Positions 4,355 through 30,775 of a stretch of 64,000 bases of DNA are shown in pieces. Positions within the stretch are counted from its first letter, which is position 1, and each line of letters opens with the position of its first letter. The notes beneath the pieces are model-generated. The model saw only the letters and a list, made by a program, of their open reading frames with translations, ran no database searches and was not told where the DNA came from. Origin of the DNA: an uncultured Selenomonas sp. (GTDB lineage Bacteria; Bacillota; Negativicutes; Selenomonadales; Selenomonadaceae); the NCBI RefSeq assembly GCF_963528755.1, contig NZ_CAURXA010000003.1, forward strand, positions 113,030 to 177,029, given 5' to 3'. The position numbers and the translations under genes are program-made.

Positions 4355-4383
4355 TTGCACATCGCCTGCATTGCTGATATACT
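4355..4383 (+). promoter_or_regulatory. sigma-70-type promoter of gltX
   Basis: TTGCAC (4355-4360), 17-nt spacer, then TGaTATACT extended -10 (TATACT 4378-4383). About 50 nt upstream of the gltX start. Confidence 0.5.
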
Positions 4384-4432
4384 ACAACAAGAAACTAGAA
4401 TAGACACAAAAAGAGCATCGGGAGGAATCATC

Positions 4433-5893
4433 TTGAGCAATCGTATACGCACGCGCTTCGCGCCCAGTCCCACGGGCTACATGCACATCGGCAATCTGCG
4501 CACAGCGCTTTACGGCTATCTCTTCGCGAAGTCCCAGGGCGGCGACTTCATCCTGCGCATCGAGGACACGGATCAGGAGCGCTTCGTCGAAGGCGCACGC
4601 GAGGTCATCAACGAGAGTCTTGCCGCCGCACACATCATCGCCGATGAAAGCCCTGAAAAGGGTGGCGCTTTCGGCCCCTATGTGCAGAGCGAGCGCAAGG
4701 CGATCTACAAGGAATATGCCGAAAAACTCGTCGCCAGCGGCCACGCCTATCGCTGCTTCTGCTCGGCGAAAGATCATGCGCACGAGCCGGAATCCGAAAA
4801 GTTCGGCGGCTATGACCGCCACTGCCGCGACCTCGCCCCCGAGGAAATCGAGCGCCAGCTTGCGGCGGGAACGCCCTACGTCATCCGCCAGAAGATGCCG
4901 CTCACCGGCTCGACGACGTACCGCGATCTGATCCTCGGCAGCATCACGATCGAGAACAGCGAACTCGAAGACCAGATTCTCTTGAAGAGCGACGGCATGC
5001 CGACGTACAACTTCGCCAACGTCGTAGACGATCACCTCATGGAGATCACGCACGTCATCCGCGGCAACGAGTACATCACTTCGACGCCCAAGCATGTGCT
5101 GCTCTACGAATTCTTCGGCTGGCAGCTGCCCGAGTTCATCCACCTGCCGCCCGTCATGGGAAAGAGCGAAGACGGCACCGTGTCGAAGCTCTCGAAGCGT
5201 CACGGCGCAGCGAGTTTCGGCCAGCTTCTCGACAAAGGCTACCTCGCCGAAGCCGTCACGAACTATGTCGCGCTCCTCGGCTGGTCGCCCAAGGACACGA
5301 ATCAGGAAATCTTCACGATGGAAGAGCTCATCGGGGCGTTCTCCCTAGACGGCATCAGCAAGTCGCCCGCCATCTTCGACTACAAGAAGCTCGACTGGAT
5401 GAACGGCGAATACTTCAAGTCGATGGAGTCCGACGCCTTCGCCAAACTCGCGCGTCCCTTCGCCGGCGACCTACCAGCAGAACTTGCCGAGAAGTGGGAC
5501 TACGCCGCCGAAGTCCTGCGCCCGCGCCTCAGCCGCCTCGGCGAAATCAAAGAGCAGATCCATTTCCTCATCGAGATGCCCGACTACGACCTCGACTGCT
5601 ACACGAACAAGCGCAACAAGACGAACCCGGAAAAGGCGCGCACTCTCCTTCCCGAAGCGCTGCCGATGCTCGAAAGCATAGAGCCGTGGACTCCCGACGC
5701 CATCAACGCGGCGCTCGACGCCTTCGCAGAACAGCGCGGCGAAAAGAAGGGCGCCGTCATGTGGCCGCTTCGCATCGCCGTCTCAGGGCAGAAAGTCACG
5801 CCGGGCGGCCTCACGGAAGTACTCTTCCTGCTCGGCAAAAAAAATTCTCTCGATCGTCTCAAAAAAAGTCTTGCCAAACTGCAGAATATGTAA
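4433..5893 (+). CDS. gltX: glutamate--tRNA ligase
   Basis: ORF 4355..5893 trimmed to TTG 4433, preceded by GGGAGG. Contains RFAPSPTGYMHIGNLRTALY (HIGH region) and VSKLSKRHG (KMSKS). Full-length similarity to the GltX architecture. Confidence 0.92.
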   Translation: MSNRIRTRFAPSPTGYMHIGNLRTALYGYLFAKSQGGDFILRIEDTDQERFVEGAREVINESLAAAHIIADESPEKGGAFGPYVQSERKAIYKEYAEKLVASGHAYRCFCSAKDHAHEPESEKFGGYDRHCRDLAPEEIERQLAAGTPYVIRQKMPLTGSTTYRDLILGSITIENSELEDQILLKSDGMPTYNFANVVDDHLMEITHVIRGNEYITSTPKHVLLYEFFGWQLPEFIHLPPVMGKSEDGTVSKLSKRHGAASFGQLLDKGYLAEAVTNYVALLGWSPKDTNQEIFTMEELIGAFSLDGISKSPAIFDYKKLDWMNGEYFKSMESDAFAKLARPFAGDLPAELAEKWDYAAEVLRPRLSRLGEIKEQIHFLIEMPDYDLDCYTNKRNKTNPEKARTLLPEALPMLESIEPWTPDAINAALDAFAEQRGEKKGAVMWPLRIAVSGQKVTPGGLTEVLFLLGKKNSLDRLKKSLAKLQNM

Positions 5894-5914: not shown

Positions 5915-5989
5915 GGCTCCTTCGTCAAGTGGTTAAGACACCGCCCTCTCACGGCGGGTTCATGGGTTCGAATCCCATAGGAGTCACCA
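5915..5989 (+). tRNA. tRNA-Glu (anticodon CUC), CCA encoded
   Basis: Cloverleaf folded by hand: acceptor GGCTCCT/AGGAGTC; D arm GTC-AAGTGGTTAA-GAC; anticodon stem CCGCC/GGCGG with loop CT-CTC-AC; 4-nt variable loop; T arm ATGGG-TTCGAAT-CCCAT; discriminator A plus CCA. Confidence 0.9.
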
Positions 5990-5999
5990 AGAATTTTCA

Positions 6000-6029
6000 G
6001 GGCTGAAGCCATTGGCTTCAGCCCTTTTT
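6000..6029 (+). terminator. rho-independent terminator after tRNA-Glu
   Basis: GGGCTGAAGCC-ATT-GGCTTCAGCCC followed by TTTTT. Confidence 0.8.
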
Positions 6030-6030
6030 A

Positions 6031-6506
6031 CTGACCTATCCAAGAAGCAAGCCCAACGGGCGCAGCTGATTGGCAAATAGGTCGTATGCGAAAACGTCCC
6101 GTAAGTCAAGCCCAAAGGGCGCAGACGAACGGCTGACGTTGACCGCTGCTGACTTGTCCGTAAAGCGAACCCCGAAGGGGTGAAGCTGAACGGGTAACAA
6201 GTCGTATGCGAAAACGTCCCAAGAACGCGAGCCAACGGCGAAGCGTGATTGGTCGACGTTGACCGCTGCTGACCTATCCAAGAAGCAAGCCCAACGGGCG
6301 CAGCTGATTGGCAAATAGGTCGTATGCGAAAACGTCCCGTAAGTCAAGCCCAAAGGGCGCAGACGAACGGCTGACGTTGACCGCTGCTGACTTGTCCGTA
6401 AAGCGAACCCCGAAGGGGTGAAGCTGAACGGGTAACAAGTCGTATGCGAAAACGTCCCGTAAGTCAAGCCCAAAGGGCGCAAACGAACGGCTGACGTTGA
6501 CCGCAC
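6031..6506. repeat. tandem array of eight hairpin-forming units of about 60 nt (period 118-120 bp, four double units)
   Basis: Motif A GTCGTATGCGAAAACGTCCC occurs at 6081, 6201, 6319 and 6439. Motif B GACGTTGACCGCTGCTGAC occurs at 6135, 6255, 6373 and 6493 (the last partial). The segments between them each carry a short GC hairpin (GCCC-AAC-GGGC, GCCC-AAA-GGGC, ACCCC-GAA-GGGGT, GCC-AAC-GGC) with complementary flanks. Confidence 0.9.
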
Positions 6507-6507
6507 C

Positions 6508-6536
6508 TTCTCTTTTTCCCCAGAATATGGTATACT
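6508..6536 (+). promoter_or_regulatory. extended -10 promoter of the small toxin-like ORF
   Basis: TGgTATACT (TG 6528-6529, TATACT 6531-6536). The -35 region is weak. Confidence 0.45.
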
Positions 6537-6586
6537 TTGCTCGTTGCCGCCTCCAGACTGGCACAGGAAGGAGGTGCATGTAGAAT

Positions 6587-6697
6587 ATGGAAAATGTCAC
6601 TACTAACTTCCTTATCTCCGTCGCGGCAGGAATAGTCTGCCACTATCTCTGCAGATGGCTTGACGAGAGAGAAACCGGCAACAAGCCTGAGCGTTAG
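6587..6697 (+). CDS. 36-aa hydrophobic peptide, Fst/Ldr-like type I toxin candidate
   Basis: Below the ORF-track size cutoff. Sequence is MENVTTNFLISVAAGIVCHYLCRWLDERETGNKPER: one TM segment followed by a WLDE-charged tail, as in Fst (..ISRVLDEEDDSRK). GGAGG at 6570-6574. An upstream CCTCC (6550-6554) could sequester the SD. Confidence 0.5.
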   Translation: MENVTTNFLISVAAGIVCHYLCRWLDERETGNKPER

Positions 6698-6717
6698 TCC
6701 CTGCTCGCATCATGGGA

Positions 6718-6793
6718 ACAGGAAAGCCCCCCAAGCTGTAACCTCGGGGGGCTTTCCGCATGTAGAAATGGTGTCACCACTACTTTCCTGCCG
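6718..6793 (-). ncRNA. candidate antitoxin sRNA, convergent to the toxin ORF
   Basis: Its 5' part is the complement of plus-strand GCATGTAGAAATGGTGTCACCACTAC (6759-6784). That sequence is a direct-repeat copy of the toxin translation-initiation region GCATGTAGAATATGGAAAATGTCACTAC (6576-6603). The RNA ends at the shared hairpin. Confidence 0.4.
6721..6758. terminator. shared (bidirectional) 12-bp GC hairpin between the toxin ORF and the antisense RNA
   Basis: GGAAAGCCCCCC-loop-GGGGGGCTTTCC. No clear U-tract on either side. Confidence 0.55.
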
Positions 6794-6798
6794 CACTC

Positions 6799-6828
6799 AG
6801 TATAGCACATTTACCCAGTGATATGCAA
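6799..6828 (-). promoter_or_regulatory. promoter of the candidate antitoxin sRNA
   Basis: Reverse strand reads TTGCAT (6828-6823), 18-nt spacer, then TGcTATACT (TATACT 6804-6799). Confidence 0.55.
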
Positions 6829-6836
6829 GTCATTCC

Positions 6837-7559
6837 TCAATGGCAGCCTCGGTCCTTCCATCGCGCCACCATTTCCCTTGCTGCACCTTCCGCATCTGCC
6901 GCCGCTGCCACGGCGGAGATCACGAAGAAGCCGGCGGCGCCCGCCGCTTTGACAGCGGGAAGATCCGCCGCCTTAACGCCACCGCCGACGATCACGGGCA
7001 CGGGACTCTTTTGGGCGAAGGCGGCGATTTCCGCCAGGCTGCGCGTACGGAAGCTGCCGTCTGCCTCGATGCCGGCATCGGGCTTTGACGCCGTCGCGTG
7101 CAAAGGACCTGTGCCGATGTAGTCGGCAGCCGCCAAATCCTCAGGCGCAAGCCGAGGAAGATCCTGCGGATGCGCCGACAGGCCGACGATCGCCGCTTCC
7201 CCGAGAAGGCGGCGGCAAATATGCGCGGGCACGTCCTTCTGCCCCACATGCACGCCCGCGACGGCGACGCCCATCTCCCGCGCCGCGAGCGCGACGTCGA
7301 GCCGATCGTCGACGAGAAGCGGCACGCTTGCTGCCGCGCCGGCCGCCTCGATCGCCCGCGCCGCCTCGCCGAGCAGCGCGATCTGCTCGCGTGCGCTCTC
7401 CTCCTTCGCGCGAAGCTGCACCGCCGTGAAGCCCGCGCACACCGCCGCCTTGACGATCTCGCCGACGCGCCGCCCCTTCGTATCACGAGGCCCGATGACG
7501 AGATACGCCGTGACCGCGAGATGCGAGCGCAAAGTCATATCGCTCACGGAAAAGCCCAT
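6837..7559 (-). CDS. thiE: thiamine-phosphate synthase
   Basis: ORF 6837..7574 trimmed to ATG 7559 (GGGAGG 9 nt upstream). ThiE-like sequence: ..YLVIGPRD..FTAVQLRAKE..LLVDDRLDVA..GVHVGQKD..IGTGPLHATASKPDAG..VIVGGGV. Confidence 0.85.
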   Translation of the reverse strand: MGFSVSDMTLRSHLAVTAYLVIGPRDTKGRRVGEIVKAAVCAGFTAVQLRAKEESAREQIALLGEAARAIEAAGAAASVPLLVDDRLDVALAAREMGVAVAGVHVGQKDVPAHICRRLLGEAAIVGLSAHPQDLPRLAPEDLAAADYIGTGPLHATASKPDAGIEADGSFRTRSLAEIAAFAQKSPVPVIVGGGVKAADLPAVKAAGAAGFFVISAVAAAADAEGAAREMVARWKDRGCH

Positions 7560-7585
7560 AGGAGCGCCTCCCATCCCTTATCCAT

Positions 7586-8795: not shown

Positions 8796-8824
8796 TTGAC
8801 AAAGCGCGGCACCTCCTCTATATT
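8796..8824 (+). promoter_or_regulatory. divergent promoter for the 92-aa / DUF4160 gene pair
   Basis: TTGACA (8796-8801), 17-nt spacer, TATATT (8819-8824). The ORF-track start at 8796 is this -35 box, not a start codon. Confidence 0.55.
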
Positions 8825-8858
8825 TGATGTAGCAGATATTCAGAAGAGGAGGTGCGTC

Positions 8859-9137
8859 ATGAAGCATCATTACAGCACGATCAACGGCATCGTCACAACA
8901 TTTTCCGATATACACCAATCCGCTCAAAAGGGCGAAAGCATCTTGGTCTATATGGAGCGTGCAGCAGAAAACGGCTTTGATACGGCAGAAATCCTGCTGC
9001 CAAGCATCTCGTTCGTAAGCTACAGCGGCTTTAGCGAGGACGAGCGCACCGAGCTGCTCAATTTCGTTCAGCGAAACAGCGCTCTAATCTGGGAGATCGC
9101 ACGCGAGGATGGTGAAATCATTGCCGACGTGGGGTGA
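8859..9137 (+). CDS. hypothetical 92-aa protein, partner of the DUF4160 gene
   Basis: ORF 8796..9137 trimmed to ATG 8859 (AGGAGG 7 nt upstream). I recognise no family. Overlaps the next gene by 29 nt. Confidence 0.6.
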   Translation: MKHHYSTINGIVTTFSDIHQSAQKGESILVYMERAAENGFDTAEILLPSISFVSYSGFSEDERTELLNFVQRNSALIWEIAREDGEIIADVG

Positions 9138-9381
9138 GTTATTCGGTTACCGTCTCTTTTTCTGGTCAAACGAAAATGACGAACCTGTACACATACATGT
9201 TTGTAAAGGTGTACCAACACCAAACGCCACAAAAATTTGGATTCCGCCAACGGGCAATCCCATCGTTGCACATAATCACAGCGGCATTCCGACAAAAGAT
9301 TTGAACCGTCTGCTCAAAGGCATCGCAGCGAACAAAGAGAGCATCGTCTACAGCTGGTACCAGCATTTTGGTCGCTTGTGA
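9109..9381 (+). CDS. DUF4160 domain protein
   Basis: 90 aa. FGYRLFFWSNENDEPVHIHVCKG..ATKIWI....GIPTKDLNRLLKGIAANKESIVYSWYQHF fits the YRFFFYS..EP.HVHV...AKFWL pattern of DUF4160. Confidence 0.7.
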   Translation: MVKSLPTWGELFGYRLFFWSNENDEPVHIHVCKGVPTPNATKIWIPPTGNPIVAHNHSGIPTKDLNRLLKGIAANKESIVYSWYQHFGRL

Positions 9382-30614: not shown

Positions 30615-30656
30615 GGTGCTATCCAAGCGGTAGGCGGTCGATTCTTAGCCCCTAGG
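30615..30656 (+). repeat. left arm of an imperfect inverted repeat
   Basis: GGTGCTATC..GGTA..CGGTC..AGCCCCT. Its partner is the reverse complement of 30911-30939. Confidence 0.6.
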
Positions 30657-30775
30657 CGGTCAACGTCATCCGCGCATCTGCGCTCTTCGAGCTTGATTTG
30701 CGGGACGTTTTCGCATACGAGCCATTTGCCAATCAGCTACGCCCTGCGGGCTTGCTTTTTGGATGGCTCAGCAGG
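30655..30775 (-). repeat. about two units of the 6031-6506 hairpin repeat family, in inverted orientation
   Basis: Reverse complement contains CTGCTGAGC, ..GCAAGCCCGCAGGGCGTAGCTGATTGGCAAATGG.., CTCGTATGCGAAAACGTCCC (motif A, 19 of 20) and GACGTTGACCGCC (motif B). Confidence 0.75.

Follow-up and report, generated by a model that had tools for sequence, protein, structure and literature searches.

A candidate chromosomal par/Fst-like type I toxin–antitoxin module between gltX and thiE of an oral Selenomonas

We analyzed a 64,000-nt stretch of DNA from an uncultured oral Selenomonas species (contig NZ_CAURXA010000003.1, positions 113,030 to 177,029 of the forward strand), hereafter called the window; all coordinates are window positions. 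A toxin–antitoxin module was suspected between gltX/tRNA-Glu and thiE, where an initial annotation made from the sequence had proposed an Fst/Ldr-like type I system composed of a 36-aa peptide and a convergent antisense RNA. All the motifs listed in that annotation were found in the sequence (Table 1). Our analyses indicate that this locus is very probably a chromosomal par/Fst-like (Fst/RNA II) type I toxin–antitoxin module, with an architecture and a mechanism read by homology. Related loci are labeled with L (L001–L047 and others) and sequencing runs with X (X1–X30).

Table 1. Features of the candidate module and of its neighborhood (ORF, open reading frame; SD, Shine–Dalgarno sequence; TSS, transcription start site).
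Feature	Position	Strand	Details
Toxin (RNA I-like) promoter	6508-6536	+	-35 TTCTCT 6508-6513, 17 nt, extended -10 TGgTATACT 6528-6536
Predicted toxin mRNA, ~220 nt	6543-6762	+	TSS to just past terminator
5'-terminal GUUGCC	6543-6548	+	5' arm of long-range helix with GGCAAC 6677-6682
SD-masking 5' stem-loop	6546-6577	+	anti-SD CCUCC 6550-6554 with SD GGAGG 6570-6574
Direct repeat, 5' copy / antisense target	6576-6612 (core 6576-6603)	+	just after SD, through start codon, to codon 9
Toxin ORF, 36 aa	6587-6697	+	ATG 6587, stop codon 6695-6697; encodes MENVTTNFLISVAAGIVCHYLCRWLDERETGNKPER
GGCAAC-A-AGCCUGAG RNA element	6677-6691	+	translated G-N-K-P-E; 3' arm of long-range helix
Putative shared bidirectional terminator hairpin	6721-6757	both	12-bp stem GGAAAGCCCCCC/GGGGGGCTTTCC, 13-nt loop, dG -25.1
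Direct repeat, 3' copy	6758-6783, extendable to 6788	-	read on minus strand, antitoxin RNA 5' tail
Predicted antitoxin RNA (RNA II-like), ~75-80 nt	6792 to ~6714 (79 nt)	-	placed from promoter position and terminator
Antitoxin promoter	6828->6799	-	TTGCAT 6828->6823, 18 nt, TGcTATACT 6807->6799
gltX	4355-5893	+	
tRNA-Glu(CTC)	5915-5989		then terminator 5999-6025
Tandem repeat array	6031-6506		between tRNA-Glu terminator and toxin promoter
thiE	6837-7574	-	stop codon 6837-6839; convergent with toxin gene
rpsR-ssb-rpsF	beyond thiE	-	

The toxin ORF would be transcribed from a promoter with a weak -35 box, and the predicted mRNA starts around position 6543. Downstream of the ORF, the shared hairpin also occupies the site where the convergent thiE transcript must end. 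The initial annotation had placed this hairpin at 6721-6758 and the 3' repeat copy at 6759-6784; both are present, with corrected limits of 6721-6757 and 6758-6783. The base of the stem is A/U-rich (GGAAAG.../...CUUUCC), such that the GCCCCCC/GGGGGGC core is followed by UUUCC in both directions, which softens an earlier caveat that the hairpin lacks U-tracts. Clear T-runs were found at the terminator of relatives with a lower G+C content. The loop of the window hairpin (AAGCUGUAACCUC) contains no clean YUNR motif by eye and the loop of L011, a related Selenomonas, contains CUGG; this motif is too short to be distinguished from chance.

We then considered the conservation of this layout. The proposal that the locus is organized like par held up in the comparison: each element is position-conserved in 52 of 56 non-redundant homologous loci, whose sequences have diverged. 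The recurring order begins with an extended -10 promoter and an SD-masking 5' stem-loop; the ORF comes next, followed by a strong hairpin, a repeat of the start region of the same locus and finally a convergent promoter. In most of the 52 family loci the extended -10 element lies 41-50 nt before the start codon (median 46.5 nt), and a hairpin separates the stop codon from the repeat copy (mean dG of -32). Beyond this copy, the -10 element of the convergent promoter follows at a median distance of 10 nt. The convergent promoter reaches on average 10.5 of 13 consensus points in these loci, and the sense promoter scores lower (9.3/13).

The most informative element is the copy of the start region. 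The initial annotation had warned that the matches between the two copies are short, but their similarity clearly exceeds chance: the start region of the window (positions -14..+26) aligns to its own downstream region with a local-alignment score of 33, relative to 14.2 +/- 2.8 for the downstream regions of the 55 other family loci. The same trend was observed across all 56 loci, where the score was 31.5 with the own partner and 14.2 +/- 2.8 with other loci, a difference of ~6 standard deviations. The best match of a start region among the 56 downstream regions was that of its own locus in 45 cases, and the own region ranked third or better in 52. The controls remained at background level (13.9 for the reverse complement and 11.2 for the rest of the ORF). 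The sequence of the repeat thus varies among loci yet matches its own partner. This is illustrated by L011, which retained the ORF with seven substitutions: the sequence GCATGTAGA..TGTCAC(C)ACTAC is changed to GCATACAGA..ATCGCCATATC (..ATCGCC) in both repeat copies. The changes in the hairpin stem of L011 are compensatory, its sense-promoter stretch is nearly identical to that of the window, and its antisense promoter reads TTGCCT, 18 nt, TGtTATAAT.

A direct repeat cannot pair within one strand. Co-varying direct copies combined with an outward promoter on the opposite strand are expected if an antisense RNA acts on the start region, and pairing of such an RNA with this region of the mRNA is the only explanation we see for the pattern. 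In the predicted antisense RNA, the terminator hairpin is preceded by a 35-nt tail with little structure. A duplex prediction had been suggested as a check, and it agreed with the proposal: the 5' tail was predicted to pair with mRNA positions 6576-6612 at -39.1 kcal/mol, as compared with -17.0 +/- 3.4 for 1000 shuffles, none of which reached this value (z = -6.6). As a positive control, we ran the same script on the par locus of plasmid pAD1, whose peptide is labeled 'type I toxin-antitoxin system Fst family toxin' in RefSeq. It recovered the same layout of repeat, terminator and promoter: the repeat falls into two parts on either side of the start codon, and TTGACC..TATACT lies beyond it on the other strand.

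The predicted toxin mRNA also presents two conserved folds. We found support for the suggestion that CCTCC in the 5' untranslated region (UTR) could mask the SD sequence, based on the minimum free energy (MFE) fold of the 5' UTR from the TSS at ~6543, in which CCGCCUCC is paired with GGAGGUG, and on the association of SD and anti-SD types across loci. GGAGG is found with CCTCC in a ratio of 13:1, and GGGGG with CCCCU/CACCC in a ratio of 17:2. Requiring an anti-SD that is the exact reverse-complement pentamer proved too strict a test (14/53), so that motif classes and folding were used instead. In 39 of 53 loci, an upstream segment pairs with at least four of the five SD bases, although the folding contrast itself is weak (0.81 versus 0.66 for shuffled sequences). 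The second fold is a long-range helix between the 5' end of the mRNA and an element near the end of the ORF, and its two arms pair with each other when the complete mRNA is folded (MFE). Five Watson–Crick combinations were observed (GUUGCC/GGCAAC, GUUGUC/GACAAC, GCUGCC/GGCAGC, GUUACC/GGUAAC and GCUGUC/GACAGC), and the helix is fully paired in 32 of the 34 loci where both hexamers could be located. None of 5000 permutations of the partners reached the observed pairing. In this comparative analysis, positional conservation and co-variation were seen for the repeat, the hairpin, the two promoters and the two intramolecular helices.

The long-range helix has a consequence for the peptide. The GGCAAC-N-AGCCU element is located within the ORF in 18 loci, where it reads G-N-K/Q-P, and after the stop codon in 16 loci. 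Since the same element lies outside the ORF in about half of the loci, the 'conserved' peptide tail would appear to be, at least partly, the product of an RNA constraint.

The ORF itself was not included in the list available to the initial annotation, which proposed its conservation in homologous loci as a test. The toxin frame is open in all 56 non-redundant loci whereas the other two frames contain stops. Entropy at the three codon positions was 0.78/0.29/1.06 across the 56 loci, indicating that third positions vary the most, and 47% of the differing codon pairs are synonymous. An intact ORF with an SD sequence was found in 85 out of 85 occurrences. This pattern of substitutions shows that the ORF is under coding constraint. 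Gene callers also predicted the ORF on 31 blocks of public assemblies. The peptide presents one transmembrane (TM) helix with the motif S11-V-A-A-G15 (SxxxG), followed by Trp24 and a charged tail. Residues 4-22, ahead of W24, are hydrophobic (mean Kyte–Doolittle value of 1.58), and 8 of the 14 residues of the tail (RWLDERETGNKPER) are charged. The Trp is at least 90% conserved in an alignment of 48 family sequences, and the xxxG motif was found within the TM helix in 41 of the 56 non-redundant loci.

We searched for relatives of the peptide with phmmer against 1.84 billion representatives and obtained 56 hits at E<=1e-3, of which ~53 are genuine small peptides (clusters counted at 50% identity). 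Three hits were discarded as repeat proteins rather than relatives: P0001 (3733 aa, 17 repeats ..TYTCQWLDE..), P0016 and P0043. The family presents a core of 24-42 aa with the consensus ..SFLxSVxAGIVCHYICKWLD followed by a charged tail, the segment AG(I/V)VCHYICKWLD being common. In many members the gene call extends beyond this core in the same frame, either taking in the 5' UTR or running on through the terminator. Ten clusters were looked up and had no name in any source. Human oral and other metagenome contigs carry the identical 36-aa peptide, and a pattern scan of metagenome contigs revealed family members at a minimum of 486 loci. Using tblastn, we found relatives on 507 plasmid records, 449 of them from Enterococcus; two of the plasmid records are small cryptic plasmids of uncultured bacteria, and a few phage-like contigs also carry relatives.

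One of the Enterococcus copies (L014; E. faecium plasmid CP063569.1, 294281-294475) is a complete module of the same clade that is found on E. faecium megaplasmids. It encodes MKYLFDFVFAIKPLADVVCSYLCKWLDCKIAKKDSKPTR, and the repeat and the terminator are present along with an antisense promoter of sequence TTGCAT-17-TATAAT. Most of the Enterococcus plasmid records leave the module unannotated, and in others it is overlain by a 'hypothetical protein' on the opposite strand. Our search of titles and abstracts on E. faecium, Fst and type I systems retrieved none describing the E. faecium plasmid locus, and a literature search found nothing tying type I toxins to Selenomonas or Negativicutes. Modules of the family also occur as tandem pairs, 270-450 nt apart on the same contig (L023, L029, L046 and L047). 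Each copy has its own repeat partner in L046 and L047, as do both copies in L023, and one copy of L029 is without a recognizable repeat.

The link to a known family is provided by streptococcal members. We compared the profile of the family to known peptides with hhalign. The alignment was weak with FstpAD1 (probability 41%, E 2.8e-4; 29% identity over 21 columns) and with the RefSeq 'Fst family toxin' of pNB304, ending in ..FAYWLDKRDDN (62%, E 7e-5). The only strong match was to the streptococcal clade, represented by the pneumococcal-type peptide encoded by SpF66 (97.8%, E 9e-13). The Rfam model RF02442 (SpF66_sRNA) aligns over its full length (1-239) to positions 6543-6761 on the plus strand, with 20.8 bits and an E-value of 0.087. 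Of 18 relatives compared with this model, 17 gave a match, at 53.3 bits for the E. faecium plasmid copy, which exceeds the gathering score, and at 21-41 bits for the 16 others. Its consensus contains an SD sequence and an intact 32-codon ORF encoding MSLILELVLTIIADVIAGIILYFVCKWLDGKE. Rfam types RF02442 as 'Gene; sRNA' (small RNA), and we conclude that SpF66 is a toxin mRNA, not a non-coding RNA. Through these streptococcal members, a link that we consider decisive, the window locus belongs to a clade that is already placed in the Fst family.

These elements suggest the following mechanism, modeled on par. The extended -10 promoter at 6528-6536 would drive the synthesis of a ~220-nt mRNA for a 36-aa membrane peptide. 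Two folds of this mRNA would restrain translation: the CCUCC/GGAGG stem-loop and the pairing of the 5' GUUGCC with GGCAAC near the end of the ORF. The convergent promoter (6828->6799) would produce an antisense RNA of ~75-80 nt, whose 3' half is the shared terminator hairpin and would be fully complementary to the mRNA terminator. Because the antisense tail is the complement of the start-region copy, it would pair in trans with 6576-6612 and block the entry of ribosomes. Contact between the two RNAs may be initiated by loop–loop interaction, as in par. When the supply of antisense RNA drops, the peptide would be translated, insert into the cytoplasmic membrane and arrest growth. We infer both transcripts and their ends, the order of RNA–RNA contacts, the relative stabilities of the two RNAs, the toxicity of the peptide and the cellular role of this chromosomal copy.

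Several observations weigh against this interpretation. A search with Fst/Ldr profile models had been suggested as a check and it did not reach threshold: the window peptide yielded no hit at E<=10 with Pfam PF13955 (Fst_toxin), PF13940 (Ldr_toxin) or NCBIfam NF033608. All the hits among the 48 relatives were sub-threshold, with six relatives matching Ldr_toxin (best E 0.031), one matching Fst_toxin (E 0.035) and six matching NF033608 type_I_tox_Fst (best E 7e-4). The SpF66 score of the window (20.8 bits) lies below the gathering score of 42. The convergent promoter presents the elements described in the initial annotation (TTGCAT-18-TGcTATACT), but calling it strong was an overstatement: its -35 box matches TTGACA at only 3/6 positions and the promoter is of the 'extended -10' type. 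The window hairpin possesses only a minimal UUUCC tail in either direction. A generic terminator scan did not list this hairpin, and a generic promoter scan listed neither the sense nor the antisense promoter. Finally, the toxicity of the clade in its own hosts is presumed by analogy with other members of the Fst family.

RNA data also bear on this question. We used Logan contigs from RNA libraries, which are without strand information and may include DNA. Stand-alone contigs identical to the window cover 6556-6731 in run X24, 6556-6730 in X25 and 6556-6706 in X26 (three runs from two studies; X24 and X25 are wastewater metatranscriptomes and X26 is another RNA run). In these runs, depth was zero over a part of gltX (5800-5893) and over most of thiE, where we observed only short partial matches (~7272-7399). 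These contigs fit an abundant and stable sense RNA. On the other side of the balance, depth was also zero at 6760-6823 in these unstranded contigs, such that no antisense RNA was seen, and the contigs begin at 6555/6556, 12 nt past the predicted TSS and just after CCUCC. At the other end, the X24 and X25 contigs stop at 6730-6732, where the 5' arm of the hairpin ends; the X26 contig stops at 6706. These ends could reflect the loss of coverage at RNA ends or a processed, translatable form of the mRNA. Among the other libraries, X8 contains a contig (6659-6839) that is possibly DNA or thiE read-through, the X27 contig extends into the upstream repeat, X28 provided a single adapter-flanked fragment, and X29, X30 and X18 contain nothing over the locus.

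An alternative is that the product is a non-toxic small membrane protein whose expression is controlled by an antisense RNA, for instance a regulator or stabilizer of a membrane complex, in which case the locus would not represent a toxin–antitoxin system. This would accommodate the position of the locus among housekeeping genes, the toxicity of the window peptide being an expectation drawn from analogy, and the existence of chromosomal par homologues of obscure function, some of which present barely detectable toxin mRNA. We consider this unlikely, however, since the peptide fits the signature of a family in which toxicity was found for the members tested (FstpAD1, PepA1, Lpt and pneumococcal Fst-B) and since double translational masking together with an antisense RNA is typical of products that must stay off. 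The presence of relatives on plasmids, small cryptic plasmids, phage-like contigs and unrelated chromosomal sites further suggests a selfish module.

It is also conceivable that the hairpin is a plain terminator of thiE and the ORF, and that the repeat is the inert remnant of a partial tandem duplication, with no functional antisense RNA. Tandem duplications of the module do exist in the family, the antisense -35 box of the window is weak, and the unstranded RNA-library contigs did not reveal the antisense transcript. An inert remnant would be expected to decay, however, and the copy is instead retained in 52 of the 56 loci, where it tracks its own partner. In addition, the copy is never in reading frame, an outward promoter on the opposite strand is always found ~10 nt further on, and an experimentally dissected par locus is arranged alike, which makes this explanation very improbable. 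The idea that the sense transcript is a non-coding regulatory sRNA with an incidental ORF, which the Rfam typing of SpF66 and a 2025 survey considering F66 and F67 to be putative sRNAs, with target predictions, might favor, is hardly credible given the ORF found intact with its SD sequence in every occurrence, its codon-position pattern and synonymous differences, and a peptide far more conserved than the flanking RNA.

We further examined the surroundings of the candidate par/Fst-like module. The thiE gene of the window shares 89% identity with its counterpart in an uncultured Selenomonas MAG (metagenome-assembled genome) and 69% with the one in S. sputigena ATCC 33150. The antisense -35 box lies 9 nt from the end of thiE, with thiE upstream, and the coordinates imply that any transcript reading through from thiE would include the antitoxin sequence as far as the shared hairpin. 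A search for related loci based on thiE returned three loci, of which one was informative (L011). In S. sputigena, no module was found beside thiE, which adjoins nuoA. The closest relatives of the peptide outside the species (L018, L019 and L020; 72-89% identity) are encoded in G+C-rich loci that probably belong to other Selenomonas, and these modules adjoin neither thiE nor gltX. Synteny is therefore not conserved. The different locations of L018-L020 and the lack of a module beside thiE in S. sputigena indicate that the module moved, or was gained and lost, within the genus. We found no second copy of the module within the 64-kb window.

The array upstream of the toxin promoter is composed of eight tandem units of ~59 nt each. 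Every unit contains the same 44-nt hairpin, ((((((((..(((..((((...))))...)))..))))..)))), with a dG of -16 to -21; the stem sequences vary among units and the changes are compensatory. This hairpin-repeat array had no match in Rfam. The number of units differs among strains, many metagenome contigs break in the array, and a second partial copy is located at 30656-30774 on the minus strand of the window. In run X1, parts of the array were found at a contig depth of 217-1136, relative to ~10-30 for the flanking genes. One metagenome contig (L001, 4455-5001) carries the array and the toxin module joined to a DcuA/DcuB transporter gene and not to gltX-tRNA-Glu, which reflects either an alternative arrangement in the genome or a chimera assembled across the repeat. 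Further downstream in the window, two small overlapping ORFs are found on the plus strand at 8796-9381: one of 113 aa (8796-9137) and one of 90 aa (9109-9381), the latter matching Pfam DUF4160 in the corresponding metagenome gene calls. This pair has the appearance of a small cassette of two genes, located as an insertion between rpsF and a FliD-like gene.

Type I toxin–antitoxin modules are usually overlooked by annotation, and the clade described here could be annotated in hundreds of genomes of gut and oral Firmicutes and on clinical E. faecium plasmids. In an earlier survey, the occurrence of Fst was limited to six taxonomic families, all from one phylum, and Fozo et al. noted Fst-like sequences in Clostridiales; the Fst/par family would now extend to Selenomonadaceae, a diderm lineage, and the Rfam 'sRNA' SpF66 would become a toxin mRNA. 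The co-variation data constitute a natural mutagenesis experiment for the RNA I/RNA II pairing model, and the GGCAAC element represents a small and clean case of a peptide that looks conserved owing to RNA structure. None of these results modifies the current view of how such systems operate. What is new is modest: the diderm Selenomonas host, the size of the clade and its lack of annotation (~450 Enterococcus plasmids), the nature of SpF66, and the RNA origin of the conserved peptide tail. More broadly, we see about equal reason to accept and to doubt that the 'CKWLD' peptides form a distinct, unnamed par-like clade, very common in gut and oral Firmicutes and reaching diderm Negativicutes and ~450 clinical Enterococcus plasmids, whose G-N-K/Q-P tail is unselected as protein and is simply the translated GGCAAC-N-AGCCU element that pairs with the 5' end of the mRNA.

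Finally, we compared the module to known type I systems. According to Weaver's review, the signature of Fst/Ldr peptides is a conserved Trp between the TM helix and the charged tail, together with a P/D/S/T-xxx-G motif in the majority of members; the window peptide presents S11xxxG15, W24 and a charged tail. The same review defines par-like operons by convergent promoters, the direct repeats DRa/DRb, a bidirectional terminator, a 5' stem-loop (5'-SL) and a helix at the 5' end of the mRNA (5'-UH), for all of which in silico candidates were found at the window locus. A resemblance was also found to the type I toxins of Clostridioides difficile (NCBIfam NF047374): 19 of the 48 family members match this model weakly through the TM segment (best E 1.6e-4), all far under its 60-bit cut-off, and the similarity consists of the hydrophobic helix only. 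The Ldr/Rdl systems of Escherichia coli share the peptide signature. LdrD (5lbj) is the only PDB hit of the family profile (E 0.39), the segment iSVaAGvvChYiCKWLDer being aligned with APVIAGILASMIVNWLNKR, and among the specific Pfam toxin families, weak hits were most frequent with Ldr_toxin (6/48 members). In contrast to the window locus, Ldr/Rdl presents hok/sok-like regulation, with a leader ORF and an antisense RNA located 5' of the ORF, and no convergent transcription over repeats. PepA1 of Staphylococcus aureus (SprA1/SprA1AS, SprA2) is likewise an Fst-family peptide with an xxxG(C) motif in its TM helix; its tail differs and there is no significant sequence match, the comparison being drawn from the literature only.

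In organization, the locus resembles par of pAD1 from E. faecalis (Fst, RNA I/RNA II). Both loci present convergent promoters, predicted ones in the window, for a toxin mRNA and a short antisense RNA, a common terminator that is putatively bidirectional in the window, and direct repeats by which the antisense 5' tail is complementary to the initiation region, in two blocks around the start codon. Both also present an SD-masking 5' stem-loop and a helix at the 5' end of the mRNA, although the equivalence of the latter with 5'-UH is by analogy only. FstpAD1 shares the TM helix, the xxxG motif and the charged tail, and hhalign pairs SVAAGIVCHYLCRWLDERETG with PIFVGLVLEMISRVLDEEDDS; this is the alignment on the R-x-LDE motif that the initial annotation had pointed out. 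The two peptides differ in that FstpAD1 has PxxxG where the window peptide has SxxxG, and Val where the window peptide has Trp. The repeat of the window ends 1 nt short of the SD sequence whereas the pAD1 repeat covers it, and the window module is chromosomal, is found in a diderm Negativicute and has a G+C-rich terminator with a minimal U-tail. The RNAs also fall into different Rfam models, RefA9/RefB11 for pAD1 par and SpF66 for the window clade.

In sequence, the locus matches the pneumococcal Fst-A/Fst-B system (F66/F67 = srn502/srn503). F66, a pneumococcal RNA of 239 nt, is encoded between SP2168 and SP2169; next to it in tandem lies F67, whose annotation is that of an Fst-family type I toxin. 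Two Fst homologues arranged in tandem were described in the pneumococcus by Fozo et al., who showed toxicity (in E. coli) and an antisense RNA of 65-75 nt for one of them. The identification of F66 as one of these two genes rests on its position between SP2168 and SP2169, on the tandem F67 and on our reading of the model consensus. The pneumococcal peptide carries DxxxG where the window peptide carries SxxxG, but both belong to the same peptide clade, and the pneumococcal mRNA model extends over the full length of the predicted toxin mRNA of the window.

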